Shown one piece after another: positions 37,723 to 63,373 of a stretch of DNA of 64,000 nucleotides. The notes beneath the pieces are model-generated. The model did no database searches, was not told where the DNA came from, and saw nothing but the letters and a program-made list of their open reading frames with translations. A program made the translations under genes and the position numbers. Source of the stretch: a virus; the IMG/VR virus record IMGVR_UViG_3300047678_000169, positions 16,239 to 80,238 of that record. One strand, written 5' to 3'. How positions within the stretch are numbered: the stretch's first letter is position 1; every line of letters starts with the position of its first letter.

Positions 37723-38127
37723 TGGTGGACCTGCGGGGAGTTGAACCCCGGTGTTTCATAAATTGCTCATCAGACATATACAAGCGTTAACACGGTGGAT
37801 ATGATTGTGGTTAGTAGTGTGCTCCACAAAAATTAGAGTCAGTAGTTTCTTCGTTGTTACAGTCTCACTTTCTCACAACGAACATATCAGCAGAGGTTGA
37901 CGTATTGACCCACTTATCTGCGTGGTGGAATACGGACTGCTCAGTTTATTAAGCAGCGACAGCCATAGCGGCTCCAACGTTCTTCGCCTTGCGGAGAAGT
38001 GTTAGAACATTTAGCTTAGCAAGATTTCTCTTAGCATTTAGTTTTTGTAATCAGGATTATGCAGGATGTTTACCACCTGCGCTTGCGTTCCGAGCTCAAC
38101 CCATAAAGTCGAATCCTGGACAGGCCC
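37723..38127 (-). ncRNA. ssrA: tmRNA
   Basis: 5' GGGCCUG..GGAUUCGAC; 3' T arm plus CAGGUCC-A-CCA with G3.U70; tag ORF 38035-37949 (AKRNLAKLNVLTLLRKAKNVGAAMAVAA) after the UAAAU resume context. Confidence 0.93.
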
Positions 38128-48354: not shown

Positions 48355-48445
48355 TGGCGGAAGGTAGAGGTCCTGACCCTCAACGCTTTTAAGTTCGTCC
48401 AACAGTTTTCGAAACTGTGTCAATGCCCTGATTGATTTATCTTCC
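48355..48445 (-). tRNA. tRNA-Ser (CGA), 8/4-type
   Basis: GGAAGAUA/UACCUUCC, 4-bp T stem GAGG/CCUC, ACAGU UU CGA AA ACUGU. Confidence 0.75.
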
Positions 48446-49078
48446 ATGTTCTATCTCTAAAATTTTCAAAGGATTTGGATAGTTGACTTCGTTTAAGTCA
48501 GACTTCTCTCCATATCCATCTATTCCGTTCATTTGTGCTAAATCTTTGATTCCTTGTAGGTGTAAGTGTGTAAACCACCCACCATTCTCATGTGGAGAGG
48601 CTAAAACACCAACAGGCGACCCTTTAAGATACTTCTGTCCAATAACAAGCTTTTCAGCTTTCAAATGAGCAAAAATTACAAGGCCATTTTCGGTTTCAAC
48701 AAGGACTCTATCTCCCCAACCTCCGTTTTGGTCTGTATCATGAAATATCTCTTTAACAATGAAATTCAAAGGACAATAAATTGATTTACCGGGCTTCAAG
48801 AAATTAACATCAACTCCGAGATGAATCGATTTCTTTGGGTTAAGATAACTTCCTCTCCAAAGGAAAGAGCGGTCTTCCATGTAGCCGCCATAACTGAAAT
48901 CTATTCTATTTAGGAACGATAGTTTGGCTAGCCACTCTTCACACCTATATGGATTGAGCAGTGGGTTTGGTTCAATGTTCTTGAACTCGACTCTTGCACA
49001 TTCATTTAAATCCAATTCTCCACATTCAACATGTGTGTCGTAATGTAACAATCCATTCATCGTGATATAATTCATCAC
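48437..49078 (-). CDS. M23-family metallopeptidase
   Basis: HLGVDV, FAHL, NGGWFTHLHLQ. Confidence 0.85.
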   Translation of the reverse strand: MMNYITMNGLLHYDTHVECGELDLNECARVEFKNIEPNPLLNPYRCEEWLAKLSFLNRIDFSYGGYMEDRSFLWRGSYLNPKKSIHLGVDVNFLKPGKSIYCPLNFIVKEIFHDTDQNGGWGDRVLVETENGLVIFAHLKAEKLVIGQKYLKGSPVGVLASPHENGGWFTHLHLQGIKDLAQMNGIDGYGEKSDLNEVNYPNPLKILEIEHGR

Positions 49079-49104
49079 TTATTAAGTATTGTCAATCACT
49101 AAAA

Positions 49105-49180
49105 TGGTAGGCCTGGAGGGAATCGAACCCCCATCCAAACGTTCGAAGCGTCTGTTTCTAATCCGTTGAATTACAAGCCC
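49105..49180 (-). tRNA. tRNA-Arg (UCG)
   Basis: Cloverleaf, CU UCG AA loop, CCA. Confidence 0.88.
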
Positions 49181-49408
49181 ACTAAAAGTTTTCTCAAATA
49201 ATACATAACATACAGAAGATGGCAGTTGCTTAGGCTGATTTAGTTCTGCTACCATGTATCTTTTCAGGGAGTCCCTCAATCCATAAGCGGTGGATAATAT
49301 AGCTCCAAGAGGCGCGGTCTAGTTGGCCGTGTTTGAGAAAAGGGCCCTCGCCCACGGGGACGGAGGGGGCCTAGCCGCGGGTGTGTATGTCCGAGTCTAG
49401 GGGATGAT

Positions 49409-49484
49409 TGGTGGGAAACCTCGGGCTCGAACCGAGAACCTTCGCTGTGTAAAAGCGCTGCGCTAACCATTGCGCCAGTCTCCC
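49409..49484 (-). tRNA. tRNA-Val (UAC)
   Basis: Cloverleaf, UU UAC AC loop, CCA. Confidence 0.9.
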
Positions 49485-49492
49485 AAATGCCG

Positions 49493-49933
49493 TTAGGCCA
49501 AAATTTTTCTTAGTTTCATACATTCAATACCATGATAGGATTTTTTCTCACCTGTGGGTTTAAAACCTTCCTTAACAAGATTAGCGTATGAATAAACGTT
49601 CTTCAATCCAACCCAAACATTGACCCTCGAAGCGTTCTTGGCTTCTTTCTTTACATGTTCAATTCTCTGTTTGATTAAAAGTCTTTGTAGTCCATTTCCT
49701 CTGTGCTTTTTCGTGACCACACAGAGTCTCAGTCCCCAAAATCCGTGATAACAGGTGATTCCACCAAATCCGACGATTTCATCATTGAACTTAGCAACAA
49801 ATATACGATGTAAAGACTTTTTAATCTCAGCCGCAGATAAGTGAGTGTATTCACTTTCGTTTGCTATTTTCTCAAGTGTAGGAAGAACTTCTTCCCATTT
49901 GCTTTTTTCTAATTTTTCAATGATGTATTTCAT
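49493..49933 (-). CDS. GNAT acetyltransferase
   Basis: IVGFG, VTKKHRGNGLQ, N..S..NL.K.GF. Confidence 0.85.
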   Translation of the reverse strand: MKYIIEKLEKSKWEEVLPTLEKIANESEYTHLSAAEIKKSLHRIFVAKFNDEIVGFGGITCYHGFWGLRLCVVTKKHRGNGLQRLLIKQRIEHVKKEAKNASRVNVWVGLKNVYSYANLVKEGFKPTGEKKSYHGIECMKLRKILA

Positions 49934-49937
49934 AAAT

Positions 49938-50021
49938 TGGTAGCGAGGGTGGGAGTCGAACCCACATTCCTTTCGGAGACTGATTTTGAGTCAGTTGTGT
50001 CTGCCATTCCACCACCCCGCC
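49938..50021 (-). tRNA. tRNA-Leu (CAA), canonical
   Basis: Long V-arm hairpin, CU CAA AA loop. Confidence 0.92.
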
Positions 50022-50025
50022 ATAA

Positions 50026-50208
50026 TTACTGTTTAAATTCCTTATTCCAGCGACTCAACATTTCAGTTGTAGCATCAGAAGCTTTCTTCTGAGTCCATTT
50101 GTCAACTTCTTTGTCGATTAGTTCTTTAGGATACATTCTACCACGCTGCTTCGCAGTATAGTGTTGGAATTTTCCTTTGACTACTGGTAATTTGTTTTCT
50201 TCTGTCAT
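50026..50208 (-). CDS. Small hypothetical protein
   Basis: 60-aa ORF filling an inter-tRNA gap. Confidence 0.55.
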   Translation of the reverse strand: MTEENKLPVVKGKFQHYTAKQRGRMYPKELIDKEVDKWTQKKASDATTEMLSRWNKEFKQ

Positions 50209-50292
50209 AAATTGGTGCTGTCTTTCTCGCCGTCACCGGTCTGAGGAACGGCGTTTCAATGCCTGCTCAGTGTCGTATTCGGTTTACGCTAG

Positions 50293-50378
50293 TGGTAGCC
50301 AAGGTGGGATTCGGACCCACAAGGACATCGCATTCTAAGTGCGGCGGTTCTTCCAATTTCCCTTTCGTCCACTTGGCC
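50293..50378 (-). tRNA. tRNA-Leu (UAG), non-canonical split-variable-arm form
   Basis: GGAC-GAAA insertion after U8; GUCC in the short variable region. Confidence 0.8.
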
Positions 50379-50386
50379 ATAAATTC

Positions 50387-50797
50387 TTAAAAAAGAGGCT
50401 TCTTTTTTTCTTCTTTGCCTTTTTTGATTTGTTCTTTTGTTGGTTTTGGAGCTTCTTTAGTTTTCCAAGCTAAATGTTGGTAAGCATATGCCAAATTGCA
50501 AATTGGGCAATCTTCCGAATCTTTTTCTCCATGTCTTGCTGGCTTTAAATCTTTTGTAACAGAGCCAAATCCAGCATTGCAACAATTGTTTCCACAACAA
50601 GGACAACGAACAAACATACATTGGCACAAACCACAATAGTCCCATGTGAACATGAAAACTCTTTTTTCTTTCCAGTCTTTGTGCCATCCATTTTTCTTAG
50701 AGCCAATTTCTTGCTCTCCACCTTTCATATAGGTTGGGTCAAAAATTTGCTTAAATGGTTTATATTTAAATTTTCGCATATAGCACATTGACTTCAA
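50387..50797 (-). CDS. Cys-rich Zn-binding hypothetical protein
   Basis: CGLC, CPCCGNNCC, CPIC. Confidence 0.65.
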   Translation of the reverse strand: MKSMCYMRKFKYKPFKQIFDPTYMKGGEQEIGSKKNGWHKDWKEKRVFMFTWDYCGLCQCMFVRCPCCGNNCCNAGFGSVTKDLKPARHGEKDSEDCPICNLAYAYQHLAWKTKEAPKPTKEQIKKGKEEKKKPLF

Positions 50798-51057
50798 TAC
50801 TGATTTTAGTCAAGATATAAAATAGACCCACTTTTTATTAATGTTGGTGGGAATCATTATTATCATTACCGTCTGTTACGACAAGTAGTGTTAACAATAA
50901 CAACACGATTGTCGCTTGTATCATAAAATTTTGAATCAGGCCCGTCTCAGTTGTGAACGCTCAAGAAGAGCGAACCTTTAACCTGTGGTCAGACTGAATC
51001 GCGTTTTTCAGCCCAAATATACGAATCTACACGTAAGCTGGTTCGGTCTAATTCAAA

Positions 51058-51136
51058 TGGTGGGAAGTCAGCGAATCGAACGCTGTTATTTCGCTCTTCA
51101 GGCGAACGCTGAAATGACCACACTAGCTCACTTCCC
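51058..51136 (-). tRNA. tRNA-Phe (GAA)
   Basis: UUCGC CU GAA GA GCGAA, CCA. Confidence 0.85.
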
Positions 51137-51719
51137 AATATCACGCCACATTGTTTCCAACGTGTTCAAGCATTCATTCACTGTTTTCCAGTCGATGTTG
51201 CTCTTTAAATTGTTTATTACCCAATTCTTTTGGCTTTTCGAACCAATTGGATAAACCCATCTCTTCTTTCCAGCAGATTCCCCTTGATAAACTGCGTTGG
51301 TTGCCTTGTAGATGGCTCCCGTGTGATGGCTTGAATCTGAATATGTTAAAATCACTTTTATTTCTGGAAATTTTGTTCCCACATAATCATTACACTTGGA
51401 TATTGAATACCAGCTAAATTTTTCTTGGAATCCTTTGGAAGAATAGCTTCATCATCAACCAAGAACAATCTTTTCAATTCAAGAATGTCTCTATTGGAAA
51501 CTTCAACACCATTTTTGAAAATTGCCTTGTAAGCCGTGAAGGCTATTGGAGAACCATAAATAACAGTTCCTACCATCACACCATTATAGAAGATACCCAT
51601 GTAAATCTTTGCCGCACTTGGGTAATCTCCAAGATAATGCTTCGTAACAAAGTCTTTCACAGAGTTTCTATCAACTTCCTTGAAAGAAACAGCCTGGGGT
51701 CTAAAAACTCATTAATCAT
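51128..51719 (-). pseudogene. Mom-like adenine-modification acetyltransferase with two frameshifts
   Basis: KHYL, GTVIYGSP, ELKRL, TYSD..HTGAIYKATN..YQG are spread over three frames. Confidence 0.75.
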
Positions 51720-51750
51720 GAGTATAAATATAACGAAATCGTATATAAAA

Positions 51751-51836
51751 TGGTAGCCGTGGTGGGATTCGAACCCACAGAGGATAAGACGTTTTAAGTG
51801 TCTCGGTTGTAGCCAATTTCCCTAATCCACACGGCC
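51751..51836 (-). tRNA. tRNA-Leu (UAA), non-canonical split-variable-arm form
   Basis: GGAU-UA insertion after U8; AUCC in the variable region. Confidence 0.8.
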
Positions 51837-51901
51837 AAAAATTATATTCTTCTTTTCTTCCATCCAGTTTCGATAGAAAGGGTTTTTGAAACTATTTTAA
51901 G

Positions 51902-51987
51902 TGGTGGGCATAAGAAGATTCGAACTTCCAAGGACTACGCATTTTGAATACGTCGCTTCTACCAATTTCGCTCTCGTCCACATGCCC
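51902..51987 (-). tRNA. tRNA-Leu (CAA), non-canonical split-variable-arm form
   Basis: GGAC-GAGA insertion after U8; GUCC in the variable region. Confidence 0.8.
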
Positions 51988-51992
51988 AAAAA

Positions 51993-52646
51993 TCAAAGAT
52001 GTTCCAATTTGGATTGAACTTTCTTAATGTCCATCTTATGAAGCTTGAAAAATGCTATCATCGAAGCTGGAGCCAAAAATGTCATGTATTGGTCAGGAAC
52101 AATTGATGTCAACTGAACCAATGCGTTCTTTAGAGCTTCATTCTGAATGAAGTTCGGTAAATTTTTGAGAAGAATGATTAGAACCATCAACACAATCGGC
52201 CAAATTCCTTTGGACATTAATGGATTGTAGCTCTTCACAATGGAACTGAATCTAGCATTGTGTATCTTCATCAATTTAACTGGAATTGATGGGTGTAAAA
52301 TCAAAATTTGCTTGAATACTTCTTGATTGAAAATTGCGACCTTCATTGGAGTTATCGAAACGATAGAAGCACTTCTTGGTGTTCCTGACAATAGCGACCC
52401 TTCTCCAATCAAATCATGAGGCTTGAGGATAATCTTGGCCGGTTTTCCAGCTTTCAATACTTGAGCCTTTCCCTCTAAAACGAGATACATTGAGTCTCCG
52501 GTGTCTCCTTCAACAATGAAGGTGACGCCAGTGGAATATTCTTTGATTTCACACAATGCCGCAACCTTTTTTAAGGTGGGATGTGGAACGTCTGAGAAAA
52601 GAAATCCTTTACTCAATTCGTCTGGAGTAGTGGTCAATTTTGGCAT
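51993..52646 (-). CDS. Cyclic-nucleotide-binding domain protein with C-terminal TM segments
   Basis: EGDTGDSMYLVLEG, GEGSLL...PRSAS phosphate-binding cassette; no HTH. Confidence 0.88.
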   Translation of the reverse strand: MPKLTTTPDELSKGFLFSDVPHPTLKKVAALCEIKEYSTGVTFIVEGDTGDSMYLVLEGKAQVLKAGKPAKIILKPHDLIGEGSLLSGTPRSASIVSITPMKVAIFNQEVFKQILILHPSIPVKLMKIHNARFSSIVKSYNPLMSKGIWPIVLMVLIILLKNLPNFIQNEALKNALVQLTSIVPDQYMTFLAPASMIAFFKLHKMDIKKVQSKLEHL

Positions 52647-52697
52647 ATGACATAAGTATAATATATGCTATTGTAACTTCAATCCATTTTAAAAAAT

Positions 52698-52844
52698 TGG
52701 TGAGAACGCTGGAATCGAACCAGTTTTTCAGCACGTTTCAAGACTTACAATGAGTTTCTTCAAGCCTGTTCGAATTATGAGTCCGAGGATTTCGAAGCGT
52801 TTCAAATTGCTATCGCTGATGTATTACCAACCTACTCCATTCTC
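52698..52844 (-). ncRNA. 147-nt tRNA-like RNA with an expanded anticodon arm containing a CAU stem-loop
   Basis: Intact acceptor, D and T arms and CCA; ~70 extra nt inside UCAGC/GCUGA. Confidence 0.65.
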
Positions 52845-52848
52845 AAAT

Positions 52849-52933
52849 TGGTGCGGATAGAGGGACTCGAACCCCCAAGCCTTTCGGCACATGCACCTCA
52901 AGCATGCGTGTCTACCAATTCCACCATATCCGC
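52849..52933 (-). tRNA. tRNA-Leu (GAG), canonical
   Basis: Cloverleaf with V arm. Confidence 0.93.
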
Positions 52934-52945
52934 AAAGAGAAACCG

Positions 52946-53167
52946 TTAGGCTTCCCAGTTAAACCTCATATCACCATAGCTTGATGGACAGTAGCAATAC
53001 TCGTCTCCATGCCCGCCATGACAACCGATGTAATCGTGGTCATACTTAACCTTGGAAAAATCAGTGACTCCTTGTTCAAGCAATTGCTTCAACACATCTG
53101 CCAAAGTCTGTCCTTCGGTCAAGTAAATTGCTCCACGCTTAATTTCCTTGATGTTTTTCTTTTTCAT
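52946..53167 (-). CDS. Small hypothetical protein
   Basis: GGAG RBS; 73 aa. Confidence 0.6.
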   Translation of the reverse strand: MKKKNIKEIKRGAIYLTEGQTLADVLKQLLEQGVTDFSKVKYDHDYIGCHGGHGDEYCYCPSSYGDMRFNWEA

Positions 53168-53211
53168 AGTTGTTTGTCTCCTTCTCTTACAATATTAGAG
53201 CGAGCATTCAA

Positions 53212-53391
53212 CTAATCAAATTCTTCTACAGTTGGAGCGTGTTTTTTAAATTTACGTCTCCTTCCGTTTATATGTCCACACACTTCACATTTAACTCCTG
53301 GAACTACCCAGTTTCCATCGCAGCCGTGACAGTATCCTCTACTACGTTTTGGTATCTGTGATTTTCTACGATTGATATGTGATGTTTTCAT
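53212..53391 (-). CDS. Small basic Zn-ribbon protein (start MKTSH)
   Basis: CHGC...CEVC; the longer track ORF would overlap tRNA-Thr. Confidence 0.55.
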   Translation of the reverse strand: MKTSHINRRKSQIPKRSRGYCHGCDGNWVVPGVKCEVCGHINGRRRKFKKHAPTVEEFD

Positions 53392-53394
53392 AAA

Positions 53395-53470
53395 TGGAGC
53401 TCCTAATTGGAATCGAACCAATTTCCCCATCATTACCAATGACGAATTCACCCATATGAACTTTAGGAGC
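53395..53470 (-). tRNA. tRNA-Thr (GGU)
   Basis: GCUCCUA acceptor, UU GGU AA loop. Confidence 0.85.
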
Positions 53471-53598
53471 AAAAATTTTGTAATAATGATAATCCCCTTC
53501 ACCAAATTTCTCTGGTTGAGGCCAAGACACACCTGTTATCATCCCTCTTGGTCGTTAACTGCAAATCGAACTAGTATAATCCACAGTTCTATTACAAA

Positions 53599-53684
53599 TG
53601 GTGCAAAGGACTGGATTCGAACCAGCGAAGCCTTACGGCGAAAGCTTATGAAACTCCCTGTTTTAGCCACTTACCTACCCTTGC
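53599..53684 (-). tRNA. CAU-anticodon tRNA with a long variable arm (identity uncertain)
   Basis: UU CAU AA loop; V arm GCC-GUAA-GGC; A73. Confidence 0.75.
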
Positions 53685-53695
53685 GTTAAATTAAT

Positions 53696-54028
53696 CAGAG
53701 AAGCTATAGCCGATGTTCTGTCCAGAACCGAAGTCCCTGACCTTACATTTCTCTATGAGACGTAAATTTTGCCTCATTCCAAGCTTTTCGCCGGGATGCC
53801 CCTACCTTAGTATGCAAACGAGCGACTCACGCTCTCTACAATTTTTGGGTTACTGCGGATGATGTGGTATTAACGAACCGCTTGTGTCCGAGAACCATAG
53901 ACCCTCCTGATTTGGACTCAGGCACTATGGCGGTTGGATGATACAGCATTGTTCTCCCAGCTACGAGTCGAGCAGCATCGAACTTCCTCTATGGTTTTCT
54001 TTCCCACAGCGTAAGGTCGCTTACTCTG
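53696..54028 (-). ncRNA. rnpB: RNase P RNA
   Basis: GAGGAAGUUCGAUG (CR I) and ACAGAACAUCGGCUAUA (CR V) form P4; P2 GACCUUAC/GUAAGGUC; P1 CAGAG/CUCUG. Confidence 0.88.
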
Positions 54029-54032
54029 AAAA

Positions 54033-54124
54033 TGGTAGGCGTAGCTGGACTTGAACCAGCACTCGGCACCTATCAGGTGCGCCAGGTTTATAAAACCTGC
54101 GGTGCTACATTACACAATACGCCC
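54033..54124 (-). tRNA. tRNA-Ile (UAU) with a long variable arm
   Basis: CAGGU UU UAU AA ACCUG; V arm GCAC-CUGAUAG-GUGC. Confidence 0.8.
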
Positions 54125-54129
54125 ACAAA

Positions 54130-54203
54130 TGGCTGGGATAGAAGGAATCGAACCTCCACTAAAGCTTTCAGAGAGCCCTGCGCTACCACTACGCCATATC
54201 CCA
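54130..54203 (-). tRNA. tRNA-Gln (CUG)
   Basis: UGGGAUA acceptor, CU CUG AA loop, G73. Confidence 0.88.
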
Positions 54204-54215
54204 ATAAATTCAATG

Positions 54216-54290
54216 TGGCTGCCCCCCAGCGAATCGAACGCTGATAAACCGAGTCAAAGTCGGCGATAATAACCGTTATATGAGAGAGCA
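54216..54290 (-). tRNA. tRNA-Gln (UUG)
   Basis: CU UUG AC loop, G73-CCA. Confidence 0.85.
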
Positions 54291-55088
54291 ATGTTTCTTA
54301 ATCTTCGGAACAACGATATGGTGTTCACGGCAAATTTCTTTTAAACGATTTGCACTTACACCATACAATTTTCCCAATTTTCGTAGAGAAGTTTTTGTTA
54401 CTTCGTCGGAAAGTTTTTTGAGGGAGTCGTCGTTCCATTTAATTTTTTGATTCCGTTTTTGTAGAGGAATGTTGACAACAAGTAACCCACAGATTTTTCT
54501 CAACTGGTGTTGGGTTATTCCGTGTTTTTTCTTAATGTCACTACAAGTTAACGTTAAACAATCTTGTCTAAATTCATCGGAGTCAAACCTATCTATGTAG
54601 ACTTTGTTCAACTTTAGATTAGAAGACTTCCCAGCGTATGTCGCTGTTTGTGAATGGCAATTTGGACACAAAAAACACAAATTTTCTATACGATTGTCTC
54701 TGTGGTTTCCGTTTTTATGTTCTAGCTGTAAAACTATAAGCTTGTTTCTCCATTCCGTTGTCAGTCCACATTCACATTTATACGGAACCAAATTAAACCT
54801 CAATATTAAGTTCTTTACTGTATTTGTGTTGGTATTACTATTCTCAACAAATACACTCTTACTCGCTTCATACAACGACCATTGACGATGTGTAAACTTT
54901 TTTCCCTTGTTTGATTTCAAATGCTCGGAATTTATTTTTAAAAATTCAATTCTTCTTTTAAGCGTCTTGTTATTAGCTCCCCTCGGTGGGAGGCCACATT
55001 TAATCAATACATCGGAATAAGATTTAGATTCCAGAACTATCTTTGTAAATTCTATATCACTTGTTTCGTAAATTCTACTGGTTTTCAT
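54276..55088 (-). CDS. HNH homing endonuclease
   Basis: CECG..W..LQLEHKNGNHRDNRIENLCFLCPNCHSQT; start MKTSR after TACTTAT. Confidence 0.88.
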   Translation of the reverse strand: MKTSRIYETSDIEFTKIVLESKSYSDVLIKCGLPPRGANNKTLKRRIEFLKINSEHLKSNKGKKFTHRQWSLYEASKSVFVENSNTNTNTVKNLILRFNLVPYKCECGLTTEWRNKLIVLQLEHKNGNHRDNRIENLCFLCPNCHSQTATYAGKSSNLKLNKVYIDRFDSDEFRQDCLTLTCSDIKKKHGITQHQLRKICGLLVVNIPLQKRNQKIKWNDDSLKKLSDEVTKTSLRKLGKLYGVSANRLKEICREHHIVVPKIKKHCSLI

Positions 55089-55162
55089 ACGCTTATAAGT
55101 ATGTAACGGAAGAACCAAAACGTAAATTATTTTACGCTTCCATTACACAATCGGGGAGCGTA

Positions 55163-55795
55163 TCAATTCAATTCTCTTGGGTCAATTGGCTGGCCTGGTC
55201 GTTTGTCTCCAAACAACTTGCAAAATGTGAAGTAAGCCTTCACTGCAACTGGCCACCAGAACCATGTAACTACTTGAGTATTCTCAACAATAAGTTTACG
55301 GTCTGTATCAAACCCTCTAACAAAAATTGGACCACCATTTGGGTTCTTACAGTTGATGAACTTAAATCTTCTGGTTGGTGGGCGACCTGTGTGAATAGCG
55401 TAGTCTCCCATGAGAACATCGTTGATTTCACAATTTTCAAAAGTAACATCACGAACACCAGCTTTCATGCCAATGTCACAAGTTTTGTTCATTGTAAATC
55501 CCTTGGTCTTCTTTCTAGTTCCATCATTCAAAAACTTACAGTCTTTGAAATAAATGTCTCCTCCACGAACCATATCGAAGGCTCGTTCTGCACCATTCTT
55601 GAATATGCAATTTTCAAAACGAAGATTGAATTTGAAGGAGGCTTTGAATCCCCATTCACCTGTCTTACCGTCAAATGTGCAGTTGGTATAAAGTGTATCG
55701 TCTGATACAGCTCCGTATGCTAAGGAATCCTTACCGAAGGTCTGTGGTTGGTCAAAAATTTGTCCGTCAATAGTTGTTGTAAAGCTCATAACCAT
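55163..55795 (-). CDS. Right-handed beta-helix (pectate-lyase-like) protein
   Basis: Repeated xFxNCxF coils. Confidence 0.65.
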   Translation of the reverse strand: MVMSFTTTIDGQIFDQPQTFGKDSLAYGAVSDDTLYTNCTFDGKTGEWGFKASFKFNLRFENCIFKNGAERAFDMVRGGDIYFKDCKFLNDGTRKKTKGFTMNKTCDIGMKAGVRDVTFENCEINDVLMGDYAIHTGRPPTRRFKFINCKNPNGGPIFVRGFDTDRKLIVENTQVVTWFWWPVAVKAYFTFCKLFGDKRPGQPIDPRELN

Positions 55796-55901: not shown

Positions 55902-55976
55902 TGGTGGTTCCGATGGGACTCGAACCCATAACCTGTCGCTTAAGAGGCGAAAGCTCTACCATTGAGCTACAAAACC
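55902..55976 (-). tRNA. tRNA-Lys (CUU)
   Basis: CU CUU AA loop. Confidence 0.88.
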
Positions 55977-56044: not shown

Positions 56045-56607
56045 TGGTGGACTAGTCGGTTATCACCCGAACACGCGATTTAGCTGGATTGCATTACTGG
56101 TTAATCGCCATCGTAGCCCGTAAATAGTGGACGTTCGGGACTCGAACCCGTATCTCTCTCCTCATCTGTCTTCACATCGGAAAGCGTGTTGCCATATCTT
56201 GGCGGAAGTTGCCTCTACACCAGACGCCCATAAATTAGTGACAAATCAGGCAGAATCGAACTGCCGCCCTATTTGATTCTGCACCAGCAGAAATAGCGGA
56301 ATCGAACCGCCCGAATCCTCATCGAGAGGATGTGCTACCATTACACCATGTTTTGTCAAAGTGGTGCGTTCGGAAGGAATCGAACCTTCGCCTGCTTACG
56401 CTGGTTACGCGTCGCCCTTCCAACATGGGCCTTGATACAAGTGCTTACCGCCTTCGAAGAGCAGAGTCACGTTCAACCATTTCCGCCACAAACGCAAATT
56501 GGTGAGTTACAGGAGGATTTGGCACCTCCACGAAGTTATTCCGCCGCTAACGGCAATGCTATTACCTTCGACCCCTTAAAGGCTGCGTCTTCTTCCGCCA
56601 TACACTC
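56045..56607 (-). ncRNA. Run of five aberrant tRNA-like RNAs (56045-56119, 56126-56229, 56237-56357, 56362-56495, 56500-56607)
   Basis: Each has paired ends and a T-arm-like hairpin but a non-canonical interior. Confidence 0.6.
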
Positions 56608-57796: not shown

Positions 57797-57871
57797 TGGT
57801 GGCCCGAGTGGGATTTGAACCCACAACCGTTCGACTATCAATCGAGTGCTCTAACATTGAGCTATCAGGCC
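57797..57871 (-). tRNA. tRNA-Ile (GAU)
   Basis: UU GAU AG loop. Confidence 0.88.
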
Positions 57872-57881
57872 GTAAATTATT

Positions 57882-57996
57882 TGGTGGACTAGGTGGGAAT
57901 CGAACCCACGTTTTCCGCTAGCGGAAGGACATTCCCACATCCCGTAATGGTGGAATGTATCGGAATCGAACCGATTATTTCTCCATAGACTAGCCC
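57882..57996 (-). ncRNA. Twin Ala-identity mini-tRNAs with swapped acceptor strands
   Basis: Two T arms and two ACCA ends; the acceptor strands pair only across the two units, both with G3.U70. Confidence 0.7.
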
Positions 57997-58001
57997 ACAA
58001 A

Positions 58002-58151
58002 TGGAGCCGATGATGGGAGTCTAACCTAGCAGATGAATTAGCTAACTTTGTCCAACTAATCAACATGTATTTTCATTGGGAGCTACCATTCCTTTCTACG
58101 ACATTTTCTTCAACTTAGAAAGTTGATGCTCTATCCTTGAGCTACACCGGC
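58002..58151 (-). tRNA. 150-nt tRNA-Arg (UCU)-like RNA with a large variable-region domain
   Basis: Normal acceptor, D and anticodon arms; ~75-nt insert. Confidence 0.7.
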
Positions 58152-58230
58152 ATAAATTATTTGGTCTGACTTGAGGGAAACACCAGACAGCACCCGATTT
58201 TTTCAACTCTCCTATTGTAGTGGCAAAAAT

Positions 58231-58305
58231 TGGTGGACCCAGAGGGAATCGAACCCTCACTTAATCGTTGCGAACGATATGTGCTACCATTATCACTATG
58301 AGCCC
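58231..58305 (-). tRNA. tRNA-Ala (CGC)
   Basis: G3.U70, UU CGC AA loop. Confidence 0.88.
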
Positions 58306-58412
58306 GAACCTGAGATTCATCACCGTTAACCGGCGCTAGGAATTGCCTCAGGCATGTTATCATCCGAAGGCCATCACTAAATTTTCATTAGGAGAGGACG
58401 TTTTTCGGAGAG

Positions 58413-58504
58413 TGGCGGAAGACTGAGTATTCGAAACTCAAGCGGGTTTAACACCGCTCTCACGACTTTCCAAGTCGGTCTAGAACCTATCTAGTTAATC
58501 TTCC
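58413..58504 (-). tRNA. tRNA-Ser (GGA), 8/4-compatible
   Basis: GGAAGAUU/AGUCUUCC, AA linker, 5-bp D stem. Confidence 0.78.
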
Positions 58505-58509
58505 AAAAG

Positions 58510-58587
58510 TGGCGGGATGTAAGAGGTTTGAACTCTCGACCTTCGCAGTGACAGTGCGACGCTCTAAACCAACTGAGCTAACACCCC
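58510..58587 (-). tRNA. tRNA-Asp (GUC)
   Basis: CU GUC AC loop, G73. Confidence 0.92.
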
Positions 58588-58672
58588 AAAATAGTTTAAC
58601 GTTCCGAAGTTTTAGTTCAGACGGCGTGATTTCTACACGCTTGATACAGCTCCGTTAATTGTCTGTATGGAA

Positions 58673-58749
58673 AGGAGTCCGTTGAGGGAATCGAACCCAC
58701 ATAACTGCCTTTTGCAGAGGCTGCCATAACCATTCTGGCCCACACGGAC
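58673..58749 (-). tRNA. tRNA-Cys (GCA), slightly atypical
   Basis: CU GCA AA loop, U73; ends in CCU. Confidence 0.72.
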
Positions 58750-58753
58750 GAAA

Positions 58754-59044
58754 TTATTTATCTACGTAGTTCATTTTGAACTCGTATTTCTTTTCAATCT
58801 TGGTTTCAGTCTTATCTGATTTGATTGATTCGATTTTATTTGATTGAATCATATCAACTCCTCCTTGAACACCAGTATAAATTCCAACTAAAAATAAAAT
58901 TGCGGTCATCATTTGTAGAACCACTTGAGTTTCTACTGTTTTGAAAGCCGCCAACATGAAGATGACATTTAAATTCAATAGAGCTACCCCAATGACCAAT
59001 GCTTTCTTACTATGACGAAGTTTTTGTCCGTGAGAAGGTGTCAT
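58754..59044 (-). CDS. 2-TM membrane protein (holin-like topology)
   Basis: Two hydrophobic helices and a charged C-terminal tail. Confidence 0.6.
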   Translation of the reverse strand: MTPSHGQKLRHSKKALVIGVALLNLNVIFMLAAFKTVETQVVLQMMTAILFLVGIYTGVQGGVDMIQSNKIESIKSDKTETKIEKKYEFKMNYVDK

Positions 59045-59163
59045 TTTACATCCTCCACATATTGAGGGACTGGAAATTCCTTACTCTTCTCAACAGGAAC
59101 CGTTTGGCATCCAACGGAGAACAATAAAGTCAAAAATAATAGTGTGTATAGTATCTTTTTCAT
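59041..59163 (-). CDS. 40-aa lipoprotein
   Basis: MKKILYTLLFLTLLFSVG-CQTVPVEKSKEFPVPQYVEDVK; ATGA overlap with the next gene. Confidence 0.65.
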   Translation of the reverse strand: MKKILYTLLFLTLLFSVGCQTVPVEKSKEFPVPQYVEDVK

Positions 59164-59164
59164 A

Positions 59165-59584
59165 TTAGAATCTAATCATCCAACAGCTCAATTTTTCTGA
59201 GCTTGAAAGTTTTGTTTCTTGTCCGTTTTGAGGTTCGATTGTCATTAATCCTTTTTCGGTCACTGCCATATTGATAGCATGACCACTTTTCATGGACTCA
59301 TTGTAATAGAAAAGTTCGCCTATAGCAATTCCTTCTTCTTTTCTTCCACTCTTAACGTGACACATTTGAGAAAAAACATAATAAGTTGATGCAAAGTTAT
59401 CACAATCCCATTTAGCTCTCCACTCACTTAGTTGATGTTCTTTCAACCAACCTTGATAAAATTCATAAAACTGACCTGTCAAATAACTCGTCGTAGGTCT
59501 AGCATAAGAACCATCACTGATAAACAGTTTTGCGTTCTTAAAGCCGGCCTCAATTATGAGTTTTTGAATGTCGTCTGTATTCAT
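59165..59584 (-). CDS. Transglutaminase/papain-like Cys peptidase domain protein
   Basis: WDCDNFA, GHAIN, IEPQ triad pattern. Confidence 0.7.
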   Translation of the reverse strand: MNTDDIQKLIIEAGFKNAKLFISDGSYARPTTSYLTGQFYEFYQGWLKEHQLSEWRAKWDCDNFASTYYVFSQMCHVKSGRKEEGIAIGELFYYNESMKSGHAINMAVTEKGLMTIEPQNGQETKLSSSEKLSCWMIRF

Positions 59585-59615
59585 TTGTTATAAATATAAT
59601 ACATACGAACGAAAA

Positions 59616-59691
59616 TGGTGCACAGTGAGGGACTCGAACCCCCGATGAACAGTATGTAACACTGCCGATTTAGCCGCTAATCTAACTATGC
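59616..59691 (-). tRNA. tRNA-Val (UAC)
   Basis: GU UAC AU loop, CCA. Confidence 0.82.
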
Positions 59692-59742
59692 GTAACTCCC
59701 CTTGTGAAAGACAAAGGGAGGTTGGTTTCTAACTTGTATTCG

Positions 59743-60099
59743 TTAAGCCTTGTCGGTTACATAAACCGGAAGGACAACCTTGACTGAGACAGCCTTTCCG
59801 TCACGAATTGCTGGAGTAAATCTCCACTGAGCAATCGCTTCGGACAGAACTGCCACGAGCTTTGGGTCAGCCTTAGAATCGGTCTTGAGACTTTCTACTA
59901 AGCCTGACGAATTTACCACGAACTCAAATGTCAATTTCGTATTTGCGAATTCGCTGTCAACAATTGGTGAAACTACTTTCACAACGGTTGGAACGGTTTC
60001 GCTTTTAGAAGCGAGTTTGATATAAGCCTCTTCACCAGTTGAAGCGTAAGCTGCAACAGCGGTGAGTAGACCAATGACTAGGATTTTTACTATTTTCAT
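59743..60099 (-). CDS. Secreted stand-alone TonB C-terminal domain protein
   Basis: Signal peptide; FVVNSSGLV...AIAQWRFTPAIRDGKAVSVKVVLP. Confidence 0.85.
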   Translation of the reverse strand: MKIVKILVIGLLTAVAAYASTGEEAYIKLASKSETVPTVVKVVSPIVDSEFANTKLTFEFVVNSSGLVESLKTDSKADPKLVAVLSEAIAQWRFTPAIRDGKAVSVKVVLPVYVTDKA

Positions 60100-60182
60100 A
60101 TGTTAGTTTCTGATTTATGGTTAATTCCATGTCTTTTGAACATGAACACATTCCTAATCATCGAGCCTCATAACTAACAAAA

Positions 60183-60256
60183 TGGCCGGGCCAGAGGGAT
60201 TCACACCCCCATCTTCACCGTAAATGGTGGAGTTCTAAATGTTAAACTACAGCCCG
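60183..60256 (-). tRNA. Degenerate tRNA (6-nt anticodon loop)
   Basis: Acceptor and CCA intact; no D-loop GG; altered T loop. Confidence 0.5.
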
Positions 60257-60260
60257 AAAA

Positions 60261-60336
60261 TGGTCAGTATGATAGGACTCGAACCTACATGTTCTCCTGT
60301 CCGAGAGGAGTCGCCAGCCTTTGGCACCACATACTG
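60261..60336 (-). tRNA. tRNA-Pro (CGG)
   Basis: C1-G72, CU CGG AC loop. Confidence 0.8.
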
Positions 60337-60350
60337 ATAAACTAAGAAAT

Positions 60351-60770
60351 AGGCTTTCGCTGTGGTTATCGACTTCCACTTCTGAGGCTTCAAATGCGAT
60401 GTGCGGGTTGCCTCCGTGTTACCAAGTAAGTCTACTTCCCCTATCCTTTATGATATTATGTCGTGTTCAACTCTTGTTGTCTGTTCGGCCCTGTCTTTCG
60501 ACTCCCCGACTCACGGTTTTTATGGTTGCCCATCGCATTGTTACGCGAAGAACCTACTAACGACCTTTACATATATTCTCAGTTACCTTGACTTACCATC
60601 ATACACTAAACGAAATGGGTGTAAGTAGAGGTCGTTAACTCTCTTGGTGAGGGGAATGACCCGTTCACAACACTTGTCAACTTACAAATTGTCAGAGACT
60701 TTTAAGTAATTAGGAGAGTCACTGTATCAACTCCAGTTCTTGTTTTTAATCGCACTGAACCACGGCGCCT
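60351..60770 (-). ncRNA. ~420-nt unidentified structured RNA
   Basis: Closing helix plus 8-9 bp internal long-range helices; no credible ORF. Confidence 0.6.
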
Positions 60771-60772
60771 TA

Positions 60773-60848
60773 TGGCTGCCTCGGCACGGTTCGAACGTGC
60801 GACCCGAAAATTAACAGTTTTCTGCTCTACCAACTGAGCTACGAGGCA
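60773..60848 (-). tRNA. tRNA-Asn (GUU)
   Basis: U1-A72, CU GUU AA loop, G73. Confidence 0.92.
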
Positions 60849-60874
60849 ATACTTAAACTCTTTCTTTGATAAAT

Positions 60875-60951
60875 TGGAGGGAAGGGGTGGATTTGAACCA
60901 CCGAATCTTTCGATTAACAATCGAGCGCTTTAACCGCTTAGCTACCGACCC
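60875..60951 (-). tRNA. tRNA-Asn (GUU), atypical acceptor
   Basis: UU GUU AA loop; mismatched acceptor, U73. Confidence 0.7.
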
Positions 60952-61105
60952 ACGAAAATTTATGCAACGTGTATTGTTCTGCGCCAGTGTTAAGGTGCAC
61001 CTGACCTGGTCGGAGACGTTTTACATTTTGCGGGAAAAACCGCTGCTACAGTCCTGTCGAACTGGGTCGTCACAAAGGTCAGCCGCTAAGCCAACCAAAT
61101 TAAAT

Positions 61106-61247
61106 TGGTAGAAACGATGGGAATCTCACCCTAGCCATGTTGTTGTCCGTATCAGACTTTAGTGCACTTATTTTCTGACGTAATCAACTCATTTGCGACA
61201 TATCGGCAGCGTAAGATGCTGCTGTTCTTTACTTAAACTACATTTCT
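61106..61247 (-). tRNA. 142-nt tRNA-Lys (CUU)-like RNA with a large variable-region domain
   Basis: GCAGC AU CUU AC GCUGC; insert shares motifs with 58002-58151. Confidence 0.65.
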
Positions 61248-61391: not shown

Positions 61392-61476
61392 TGGCAGGAG
61401 AGGAGCGACTCGAACGCTCAATGTCTTACGACGGCAGTTTTGGAGACTGCTGCAATACCAATTATGCGACTCACCT
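61392..61476 (-). tRNA. tRNA-Trp (CCA) with a long variable arm
   Basis: CU CCA AA loop, G73, V arm GUC-GUAA-GAC. Confidence 0.82.
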
Positions 61477-61482
61477 ATAAAA

Positions 61483-62127
61483 TTATACTCTTCCTTTTCT
61501 GAATCCTCTTGGGAGCGAATCGGTTTTTAGAACTAACTTGCTAACAAGTCCGTTGGTAATCCAATGTTTTCCAAACGACGGATTTTTCTTACCGTCAAAC
61601 ATTCCTTGTTTTGCATCGCTCATTTTCTTTTTTGTTTCTTCTGAATGTTCTTTTCCTTGGAATGGATTTCCGTTTATAGACTGATATAACAGACTTCTAT
61701 TTGATAGTTTTTGAGTAAATTCTATTCTAAATTGTTCGTCGGTTTTATATTTATCCCACAATTTATTCGCCGCTGCCTTACCCATTTTTGTGTAGTGTTC
61801 TTTGGAACGATTTACTTTGTTTCCATTTTTTCCAGTTGAATTGATGTAATCATACCCACCATTTCCTCCTAATTTGATGTTGTATGTGTCATCTCTGGCA
61901 ATAAATTCTTCATCAACTATGTCGGTTTCTTTTTGGTTCATTTCTTCTTCCGTATTACACTCAAAAAGCAACTCTTTGACAAAGTGTTCTTTTCCATGTT
62001 TCTCTACTGCCCGACCAAGCAAAACTCCAGAGCCAAAATACTCATCGTCTTTGTTTTCAGTTTTGTGTTTTCCGACGTAAATTTTATTGTTCAGTTTATT
62101 GGTAATTTTGTAAATCAAGTAGTGCAT
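61483..62127 (-). CDS. Seg-like GIY-YIG homing endonuclease
   Basis: YLIYKITN..IYVGKH..YFGSG, YNIKLGG, NUMOD3 HSEETKKKMS. Confidence 0.9.
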   Translation of the reverse strand: MHYLIYKITNKLNNKIYVGKHKTENKDDEYFGSGVLLGRAVEKHGKEHFVKELLFECNTEEEMNQKETDIVDEEFIARDDTYNIKLGGNGGYDYINSTGKNGNKVNRSKEHYTKMGKAAANKLWDKYKTDEQFRIEFTQKLSNRSLLYQSINGNPFQGKEHSEETKKKMSDAKQGMFDGKKNPSFGKHWITNGLVSKLVLKTDSLPRGFRKGRV

Positions 62128-62181: not shown

Positions 62182-62268
62182 TGGGGTGATTAACGGGATT
62201 TGAACCCGCACGGATTTCTCCGCTAGATTCACAGTCTAGCGCGTCTAGCCAATTTCGCCATAACCACC
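62182..62268 (-). tRNA. tRNA-His (GUG) with a Leu-like D arm and long variable arm
   Basis: G-1/C73, CU GUG AA loop, V arm CGGA-GAAA-UCCG. Confidence 0.82.
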
Positions 62269-62467: not shown

Positions 62468-63013
62468 TCAAAGTTGTTCTTTGAGTTTCGTAAATCTTTT
62501 ATAATTTCCGCCTTTTGGCGTTAATCCCACTTTGATGAGAGCCTGTCTTATTGACGACGAATTTTTTAGAGCTTCAATCGCTTCATTGTCAGTAACTCTT
62601 TTACAAGAACGTTTATTTCGACCTCTCCAAGTCGGAGTAATGCTATGACAGTTTGGACAAATTGCTATGTAATTTTCTCTCGTGTAGTTGTCGTGATTTC
62701 CGTCAACGTGGTCAAGTTCTAAAGCCAATCTGTGACCCAGCCACTCAGTCAATTTACACTTTCCACATGCTCCACCTTGTTCTTCTATACATCTATCTCT
62801 CTTCTTCCACAAAGTCAGAGAATCAAAGTCAGCTGACAATAACTTTTGTTTCCAAGTATCTTTTACTTTTTCTATTCTCTTGGTTTCGGTTTTTTGTCTT
62901 GACGATGCTATCTTTGTTTTGTATTCCAAATATTTCTTTGGGTCAGATTTTAGATTATCTAGCCAAGTATAATAACCACTTCTTATTTTATCTTTTGTTT
63001 CTTGAGTGTGCAT
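62468..63013 (-). CDS. HNH homing endonuclease
   Basis: CGKC..WLG..LELDHVDGNHDNYTREN..ICPNCHS. Confidence 0.88.
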   Translation of the reverse strand: MHTQETKDKIRSGYYTWLDNLKSDPKKYLEYKTKIASSRQKTETKRIEKVKDTWKQKLLSADFDSLTLWKKRDRCIEEQGGACGKCKLTEWLGHRLALELDHVDGNHDNYTRENYIAICPNCHSITPTWRGRNKRSCKRVTDNEAIEALKNSSSIRQALIKVGLTPKGGNYKRFTKLKEQL

Positions 63014-63076: not shown

Positions 63077-63160
63077 TGGTGGTGTCGGTGGGACTCGAAC
63101 CCACGATGTTTGTATTTCGGCTTAAAAGGCCGAACCAATCGCCGCTATGGGGACGACACC
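63077..63160 (-). tRNA. tRNA-Lys (UUU) with an extended variable region
   Basis: CU UUU AA loop; 12-nt V region. Confidence 0.8.
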
Positions 63161-63286: not shown

Positions 63287-63373
63287 TGGTGCTCCGGGAG
63301 CGACTCGAACCCCCGTTGGTTATTACACATCGGCTTAAAAGGCTAAACTATTCGCCGCTATAGGAACCGAAGC
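63287..63373 (-). tRNA. tRNA-Lys (UUU) with an extended variable region
   Basis: CU UUU AA loop; 15-nt V region. Confidence 0.72.

Follow-up and report, generated by a model that had tools for sequence, protein, structure and literature searches.

Among the tRNA-framed RNAs of phages, a known but poorly understood group, the tRNAs of the Lak megaphages contain conserved "enigmatic introns" that were found with eukaryote settings (Devoto et al. 2019, PMC6784885). Here we analyze two oversized RNAs of this kind, RNA 1 (Arg type, 150 nt, positions 58002-58151, minus strand) and RNA 2 (Lys type, 142 nt, 61106-61247, minus strand), which lie in the tRNA array of a phage known from IMG/VR record IMGVR_UViG_3300047678_000169. 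Positions refer to the window, the final 64 kb (64,000 nt) of this 80,238-nt record. Like their Lak counterparts, they are tRNA-framed array genes of a very large uncultured phage, with conserved inserts of tens of bases that match no Rfam family. We take the Lak inserts to lie in the anticodon loop, given that they came from a eukaryote-setting prediction. The family described here is unlike them in that its insert lies in the T stem, between nt 51 and 52, and is accompanied by a T loop with A56 and by a palindromic loop.

An extra helical arm that departs from the core at the T stem or slightly ahead of it, on the same face, is also a feature of the class II tRNAs (Leu, Ser and bacterial Tyr), in which it is retained and serves as a recognition element. 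The class II arm, however, has 3 to 7 bp, is located between nt 45 and 48 and does not interrupt the 5-bp T stem, whereas here the variable loop has 4 to 5 nt and an arm of 62 to 73 nt enters after the third T-stem pair. Archaeal introns at noncanonical sites are likewise small inserts away from position 37/38, including in the T arm, and their removal restores the cloverleaf. Unlike the bulge-helix-bulge (BHB) motif of these introns, with its two 3-nt bulges 4 bp apart, the UC and UA(G) that border the arm in our RNAs meet at one three-way junction, and inspection of this junction showed that the start of the 3' exon (GG and the T loop) would be unpaired with the 5' end of the intron. The tmRNA (RF00023) and YrlA (RF02553), which both occur in phages, resemble our RNAs in fusing a tRNA-shaped module, with acceptor stem, T arm and CCA, to a non-tRNA domain off normal decoding. 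In these two the anticodon arm is replaced, whereas our RNAs have the full set of four tRNA arms and carry their extra domain in the T stem. The tmRNA and YrlA/Y_RNA models gave no match on either RNA at E <= 10, and neither Ro60/TROVE nor RtcB was found in the phage's own 80-kb record or in the records of four relatives, all of them genome fragments. Since a defining feature of each fails, RNA 1 and RNA 2 are not class II tRNAs, BHB-intron tRNAs, tmRNAs or YrlA RNAs. No T-stem-inserted helix is mentioned in a 2020 review of noncanonical tRNAs (PMC7609411). A hairpin loop with a purine-flanked, self-complementary hexamer is shared with the HIV-1 dimerization initiation site (DIS), phi29 pRNA and ROOL/GOLLD, which is a likeness of working principle only and implies no relationship. 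Some HIV-1 DIS loops carry GUGCAC (others GCGCGC), the same hexamer as RNA 2; the DIS loop has 9 nt, compared to 17 to 20 nt here, and dimerization of our RNAs is hypothetical.

The acceptor/T-stem minihelix and the elbow formed by the T and D loops are the most constant parts of a tRNA and are read by EF-Tu, RNase P, the CCA-adding enzyme and the ribosome. Because a selected RNA here has its T stem interrupted by a 70-nt arm and its C56 altered, the family is informative either way. If the RNAs decode, they show the extent of change that translation can tolerate; otherwise, they add a distinct design to the growing, unexplained set of tRNA-framed, nondecoding phage RNAs. Being small and delimited (five members, a junction signature and two working covariance models), the family offers a practical entry to oversized phage "tRNAs", and it yields simple testable predictions on mature length, dimerization through the palindrome, and charging.

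A T stem split by an inserted arm

Neither RNA was called by ARAGORN. The Rfam tRNA model RF00005, however, aligned end to end with both, at 58005-58151 for RNA 1 (36.2 bits, above the gathering threshold of 29) and at 61109-61247 for RNA 2 (26.1 bits, below it). In each RNA, the acceptor stem has 7 bp and is followed by a discriminator and an encoded CCA; the D arm consists of 4 bp and a loop of 7 nt, and the anticodon arm of 5 bp and a loop of the same size. The anticodon loops are UUUCUAA in RNA 1 (anticodon UCU at 58119-58117) and AUCUUAC in RNA 2 (anticodon CUU at 61215-61213), both with U33 and a purine at position 37, and the variable loops are of normal size (AGAAA, 5 nt, and CGAU, 4 nt). 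A preliminary description of these RNAs, made from the sequence alone, had noted that their acceptor, D and anticodon arms are unrelated, and the two tRNA bodies indeed differ. It had further reported a variable-region insert with the ordered motifs AUGUCG, GUUGAUUA and GGACAA and an altered T arm, GCUAGG-N-AGA-Y-UCCCAUC. While all of these motifs are present in both RNAs, the position assigned to the insert has to be revised.

The insert lies outside the variable loop. It separates nt 51 from nt 52 and thereby divides the T stem, in the order AUG / UC-arm-UA(G) / GG-loop-CCCAU. Infernal, unprompted, formed the T stem from the AUG in AUGUCG and the CAU in CCCAU, leaving 79 to 86 nt inside. When the stem is read as split, both RNAs have a perfect 5-bp T stem (AUG and GG with CCCAU), and the canonical tRNA-Lys(CUU) of the same array (55902-55976, minus strand) has the identical stem, AUGGG/CCCAU, in unbroken form. 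The resulting shape is a three-way junction inside the T arm.

In RNA 1 (all coordinates of both RNAs on the minus strand), the outer 5' T-stem strand AUG (nt 49-51, at 58102-58104) is paired by Infernal with the CAU in 58013-58017. The linkers UC (58101-58100) and UA (58028-58027) enclose an inserted arm of 71 nt (58029-58099), which is predicted to fold into a basal helix GUAGA/UCUGC, a distal helix CCAA/UUGG and a 20-nt terminal loop. The center of this loop is the palindrome ACAUGU (58063-58068), directly preceded by AAAAU. The inner T-stem strand GG, the T loop UUAGACU (A56 for C56) and the 3' strand CCCAU occupy 58013-58026. RNA 2 is built in the same order: its AUG (61199-61201) pairs with the CAU in 61117-61121, and the linkers UC (61198-61197) and UAG (61133-61131) enclose an arm of 63 nt (61134-61196) with the predicted helices GC/GC, AUG/CAU, GUUG/CAAC and GUCAGA/UCUGAU and a 17-nt terminal loop. 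The central palindrome is GUGCAC (61162-61167), with AAAUAA directly before it, and GG, the T loop UGAGAUU (G55, A56) and CCCAU follow at 61117-61130.

Besides the T stem that breaks off after 3 bp, the T loop departs from that of a tRNA. The T loops of RNA 1 and RNA 2 retain U54 and A58 but carry A56, which recurs in all five members of the family presented below, and the Lys type has G55 in addition; in the array, position 56 is a C in 33/33 of the tRNAs called by ARAGORN. The D loops of the Lys type lack GG (no G18G19). Given A56 throughout the family and the missing G18G19 of the Lys type, we regard the elbow as remodeled.

Relatives in other phage lineages and conservation of the fold

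Relatives were reached through a 139-amino-acid open reading frame (ORF) of the array (59165-59584), whose homologs (50 to 71% identical; alignment A2) led to syntenic arrays in metagenome and viral contigs. Orthologs of the two RNAs lie in the syntenic tRNA arrays of three further phage lineages, and the proteins shared between the lineages with members are only 30 to 60% identical. The ortholog of RNA 1, L152a (L152:17962-18112), first appeared as a long Rfam tRNA match; it has the same D arm, the variable loop AGAAA, the junction AUG|UCG...CUAG|GG, the T loop UUAGAUU, CCCAU and the anticodon CCU. A covariance model built from this Arg-type pair (R1) matched RNA 2 at 51.9 bits and also L138a (L138:2602-2743), which recurs in two near-identical IMG/VR contigs (lineage L138/L173/L174). 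The fifth member, L259a (L260:10461-10613, lineage L259/G008), was found with a relaxed junction pattern and lies in the 123-kb record G008, whose array proteins are 30 to 54% identical to those of the window. L138a and L259a are orthologs of RNA 2. RF00005 scored L152a at 30.7 bits, above 29, and did not report L138a or L259a at E <= 1.

A second model (R2) was built from the three Lys-type RNAs alone. In 1.27 Mb of tRNA-rich phage DNA, at E <= 1e-3, it gave five matches, namely the three training RNAs and the two Arg-type RNAs (51.3 and 46.5 bits), and it matched no canonical tRNA. Since a model made of Lys-type RNAs only finds both Arg-type RNAs, the two subtypes share more than the tRNA frame. 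The model of each subtype thus detects the other, in good agreement with the preliminary view that RNA 1 and RNA 2 have a homologous inserted domain and altered T arm. That view had also included a family, and this too was borne out, as other phages have further members and the domain matches no Rfam family except tRNA. Overall, these RNAs form a real, uncatalogued family of phage tRNA-shaped RNAs, the anatomy and membership of which are well supported. RNA 1 and RNA 2 are paralogous members of this undescribed family with a T-stem arm, which represents a new variant among the tRNA-framed RNAs of phages.

Several parts are invariant in all five members, whose inserts measure 62 to 73 nt: A-Y-G, UC, the G...C with which the arm opens and closes, UA(G), GG, the T loop U-K-A-R-A-Y-W and C-C-C-R-U. 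Set on a tRNA frame, and joined in 5/5 by an arm terminal loop with a central 6-nt palindrome, these parts make up the signature of the family. The format of the terminal loop is also kept: it is 17 to 20 nt long and A-rich, with AAUA(C/A) in the Lys type or GAAAU in the Arg type, followed by the central hexamer. The hexamer is ACAUGU in both Arg-type RNAs, GUGCAC in RNA 2 and L138a, and ACGCGU in L259a. These three hexamers share their position in the loop and differ by symmetric double changes, and the chance of any 6-nt palindrome in shuffled loops came to a product of ~0.006. The palindromic loop is suggestive, not conclusive.

To score the fold, the three Lys-type RNAs were aligned (A4) as a cloverleaf with a split T stem and three arm helices. 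In this alignment 93.9% of the cells pair, compared to 38 to 47% when the 3' partners were slid by 1 to 3 columns, and 13 pairs show changes of both partners. Among 500 shuffles, none equaled the observed value for cells paired, for double-changed pairs or for the covariation score. The split T stem pairs in 100% of the cells, with pair 50-64 being U-A in RNA 2, C-G in L138a and U.G in L259a. In contrast, the contiguous T stem that an insert in the variable region needs pairs in only 60% of the cells, and its two outer pairs never form; by the same comparison, the arrangement of class II tRNAs, an arm at 45-48 beside an intact T stem, is not that of these RNAs.

Compensatory changes were found at 6/6 pairs of the Lys-type distal arm helix across the three sequences and at two pairs of the basal one. 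In the Arg type, the basal helix reads GC,UG,AU,GC,AU in RNA 1 and GC,GC,GU,CG,GC in L152a (2 compensatory pairs), the distal helix has one compensatory exchange (AU to GC), and the acceptor and anticodon stems of the two RNAs also compensate. These changes support the predicted acceptor stem, the split T stem and the basal and distal helices of the arm. Since compensation in four helices extends across lineages whose proteins are 30 to 60% identical, it points to long-term purifying selection on the RNA fold.

Closer to the window phage, a 242-nt contig from a freshwater metagenome of another study covers 58036-58277 with four differences, indicating that a near-identical strain keeps the insert. 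No insert-free allele and no DNA joint that removes the insert were present in the contigs aligned to the region. Junction patterns run on IMG/VR and the GTDB genomes yielded no member beyond the five. The pattern GCTAGG..AGAYTCCCATC had 3 matches in IMG/VR, by chance only, and ATGTCG..GTTGATTA..GGACAA had 51 there, none of them tRNA-like; ATGTCG..CTAGG..AGAYTCCCAT had 0 in IMG/VR and 2 chance matches in the GTDB genomes. The phages of INPHARED gave matches at the ordinary tRNA level only. As to proteins, a 1251-amino-acid protein of the window had no close relative in IMG/VR, only partial tail-fiber-like matches, and GroEL led to 80 loci of bacterial-level identity; five large records among these held 97 tRNA matches, none longer than 92 nt.

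Explanations for the inserted arm

We favor the explanation, which we hold to be about evenly balanced between right and wrong, that these RNAs retain an extra arm on a tRNA frame, use its palindromic loop for a homodimer or a symmetric partner, and function partly off the ribosome. The RNAs would be transcribed with the array and their ends matured in tRNA fashion. The arm would be kept in the mature RNA, co-adapted with the remodeled elbow (A56 and, in the Lys type, no G18G19), and the palindromic loop may lead to kissing (loop-loop) homodimerization or bind a symmetric partner, with at least some of the family's work done away from the ribosome. The Arg type is possibly still charged and would then decode AGA/AGG, while the Lys type would have lost decoding in two of its three lineages.

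In L138a and L259a the anticodon loop measures 8 nt and lacks U33. The acceptor stem of L138a also contains an A.C mismatch, and this RNA ends in GCA, although 16/16 ordinary tRNAs at its locus end in CCA. Canonical isoacceptors are found beside RNA 2 (the tRNA-Lys(CUU) mentioned above) and beside L152a, and because the array has this canonical tRNA-Lys(CUU), RNA 2 is redundant as a decoder. Moreover, EF-Tu reads T-stem pairs 49-65 to 51-63, which is where the arm leaves. A56, the missing GG of the Lys-type D loops, the spoiled anticodon loops and the canonical isoacceptors nearby lead us to prefer a retained arm over a clean intron. The preliminary proposal of a tRNA-scaffolded noncoding RNA is thus favored, in that two of three Lys-type members lack a usable anticodon loop, but the conserved parts are not those that had been claimed. 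Tentatively, and with more doubt than confidence, the family may be described as a previously unknown elaboration of the tRNA by a selected, retained T-stem helix whose loop forms homodimers or docks a symmetric factor of phage or host (regulatory or decoy RNAs), or, no less new, as the first bacterial T-stem tRNA intron. In the former case, large phages would gain a class of tRNA-framed regulatory or decoy RNAs; in the latter, an unknown splicing activity of phage or host would be implied.

A number of points weigh against a retained arm, or against the anatomy that it presupposes. The family evidence consists of five sequences from four lineages, and all phage genomes involved are fragments. 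Support for the split T stem comes from one covarying pair, and nearest-neighbor energies favor a 2- to 3-bp T hairpin with AUG unpaired by 3.5 to 7 kcal/mol, a comparison that we judge uninformative for a three-way junction. The arm is no more stable than its shuffles (z from -0.75 to +1.13) and its middle is poorly conserved. As a random 70-mer holds about one 6-nt palindrome, the palindrome argument rests on position and on three events. L138a may be decaying. The Arg type has a perfect anticodon loop with Arg anticodons in both lineages (UCU and CCU), and no UCU tRNA other than RNA 1 was seen in the array, features which fit a decoder whose arm is removed or tolerated. The strictly conserved, single-stranded UC and UA(G) from which the arm rises would be suitable for processing as well. 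Finally, arm retention, end maturation, charging and dimerization are all steps that we infer.

Some of these points would be accounted for if the arm were removed, which is the main rival explanation but which we consider unlikely. It would then be a new kind of protein-dependent tRNA intron at 51/52, cut at UC and UA(G) and religated into a normal 5-bp T stem, or it would be excised without ligation, as in the intervening sequences of bacterial 23S rRNA, to leave a two-piece tRNA held by the acceptor and the outer T stem. In agreement with this, deletion of the insert restores a perfect cloverleaf (4- to 5-nt variable loop, 5-bp T stem) in 5/5 members, invariant single-stranded nucleotides flank the first G-C pair of the arm, and the Arg type has kept a canonical anticodon loop, RNA 1 being the sole UCU tRNA seen. 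An arm at 51/52 should also hinder delivery by EF-Tu unless it is excised. Conserved "enigmatic introns" have been published for the Lak megaphage tRNAs (PMC6784885). However, a BHB motif was not seen on inspection of the junction, and Rfam had no match to a group I or II intron or a small self-cleaving ribozyme at E <= 10 (genes and flanks) or at E <= 1 (36-64 kb). At 62 to 73 nt the arm is too short for the known self-splicing introns, which have at least ~140 nt, and the preliminary description had rightly set aside a group I or II intron. Once spliced, the product would still carry A56 and, in the Lys type, lack G18G19, unlike every other tRNA of the array, and two of the three Lys-type members would still be unable to decode. 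Nor does simple excision need selection on the distal helix and on the palindromic loop.

The anatomy first proposed, a giant variable-region insert with a degenerate T arm and a core AUGUCG/GUUGAUUA/GGACAA closed by UGUC/GACA, is very improbable. Many tRNAs of the array, with total lengths of 84 to 92 nt, do have enlarged variable regions, and minimum-free-energy folds form a short T hairpin with AUG unpaired. The motif chain also beats shuffles, provided that the end motifs are counted: when collinear exact words were compared to dinucleotide shuffles, the chain including ATGTCG and GCTAGG gave 1/2000 (k = 5) and 0/2000 (k = 6). The interior words alone (GTTGATTA and GGACAA) were marginal, with 86/2000 and 62/2000 (p ~0.03-0.04), and a gapped alignment of the two insert interiors was no better than shuffles (z = 0.2). 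Against a variable-region insert also stands the T stem itself, since AYG/CRU always pairs and covaries whereas the contiguous stem does not form its outer pairs. Furthermore, the orthologs lack GUUGAUUA, GGACAA and the UGUC/GACA pairing; at these words L152a has GUUAAGUA/GGAAAA, L138a has GUUUAAUA/UGUUAA and L259a has nothing similar. RNA 1 has the words in its distal helix and terminal loop, and RNA 2 has them in a proximal helix and an internal loop. Because they occupy nonequivalent structural places and are not kept in orthologs, the interior motifs are most likely coincidental, and we reject the idea of fixed motifs with peripheral hairpins between them.

We regard it as likewise very improbable that the arm is a selfish or neutral insertion, that is, a small mobile module (arm and T arm) which spread into two tRNA genes and whose carriers are drifting to pseudogenes. 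The same junction and T arm on two different tRNA bodies would be expected from such a module, the array is crowded with homing endonucleases, with GIY-YIG and HNH genes within 0.3 to 1.3 kb of RNA 2, L138a combines an acceptor mismatch and GCA for CCA with a spoiled anticodon loop, and the canonical isoacceptors make two carriers redundant. Nevertheless, the module has been kept, with compensation in four helices, across lineages as distant as those described above, and the aligned contigs show neither an allele without it nor a DNA joint. An active mobile element is also made less likely by the pattern scans of IMG/VR and the GTDB genomes, in which the module turned up nowhere else.

Other readings of the inserts were considered and dropped. 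A nested tRNA inside the insert of RNA 1 was rejected since the acceptor-like pairing of the insert ends is not repeated in other members, and a hammerhead core since CUGAUAC occurs in RNA 2 only. Pairing of the arm loop with the junction AUGU is not conserved, a promoter inside the arm was considered by eye, and an ORF at 57851-58066 that starts in the loop is spurious.

The tRNA array and its other oversized tRNAs

The record has a completeness estimate of 29%, corresponding to a phage of ~275 kb, and DNA near-identical to that of the window phage was found in moss metagenomes. The setting of the phage is bacterial, with a tmRNA and a TonB_C protein present. ARAGORN called 33 tRNAs in the window and the tmRNA at 37723-38127. 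The tRNA array is on the minus strand and runs from ~47.6 kb up to the contig end, and Rfam had about 10 tRNA-like matches in it beyond these 33.

Small ORFs are scattered among the tRNAs of the array, including homing endonucleases of the GIY-YIG (61483-62127) and HNH (62468-63013) types. Within 48437-55795, the embedded ORFs encode a GNAT acetyltransferase (49493-49933), a Mom-family fragment (51358-51660), a cNMP-binding protein (51993-52646), an HNH-like protein (54276-55118) and a beta-helix protein (55163-55795). The homologs of the 139-amino-acid ORF carry Pfam PF18021/PF18022. Segments of the array at 58306-58509, 60337-60772 and 60952-61105 are free of ORFs. Rfam gave no match to an RNase P family over 36000-64000 at E <= 1.

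With regard to palindromes, GTGCAC occurs 3 times in the window, compared to ~9 expected, and the copies (59618, 60995 and 61162) all lie inside 1.6 kb of the array; ACGCGT occurs 2 times, compared to 9 expected. A check for restriction-site avoidance of the palindromes gave nothing clear. The 8-nt anticodon loop of L138a, AAAUACAU, is followed by G, and together these are the same nine letters as the Arg-type arm-loop motif AAAUACAUG.

Several array tRNAs that are normally of class I are oversized, with enlarged variable regions: Met (53599-53684, 86 nt), Ile-UAU (54033-54124, 92 nt), Trp (61392-61476, 85 nt), His (62182-62267, 86 nt) and two Lys-UUU (63077-63160, 84 nt, and 63287-63373, 87 nt). 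The 92-nt Ile(UAU) recurs across related and more distant phage arrays (L138, L143, L152, L193, L194, L208, L226 and L237). Immediately 3' of RNA 1, a 115-nt element (57882-57996, minus strand) aligned end to end with the Rfam tmRNA model at 27.4 bits, below the cut-off of 47; it has the acceptor GGGCUAG...CUAGUCC-ACCA and a canonical T arm.

A third oversized tRNA of the window, of 131 nt (56365-56495, minus strand; RF00005 36.6 bits), has CCA and a canonical T arm (GAAGG UUCGAUU CCUUC) and falls outside the T-stem-arm family. Its ~57 to 68 additional bases lie within or after the anticodon arm, with a possible stem-loop CUGCU-CUUCGAA-GGCGG (anticodon UCG) and an ACGCGU palindrome. Two further oversized tRNAs were seen in L152. 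One (L152:9361-9511, RF00005 51 bits) has ~75 additional bases in the anticodon loop, the insert containing AAAAUACC followed by the palindrome AACGUU. The other (L152:2343-2461) has a ~45-nt variable arm that itself contains a T-arm-like hairpin.

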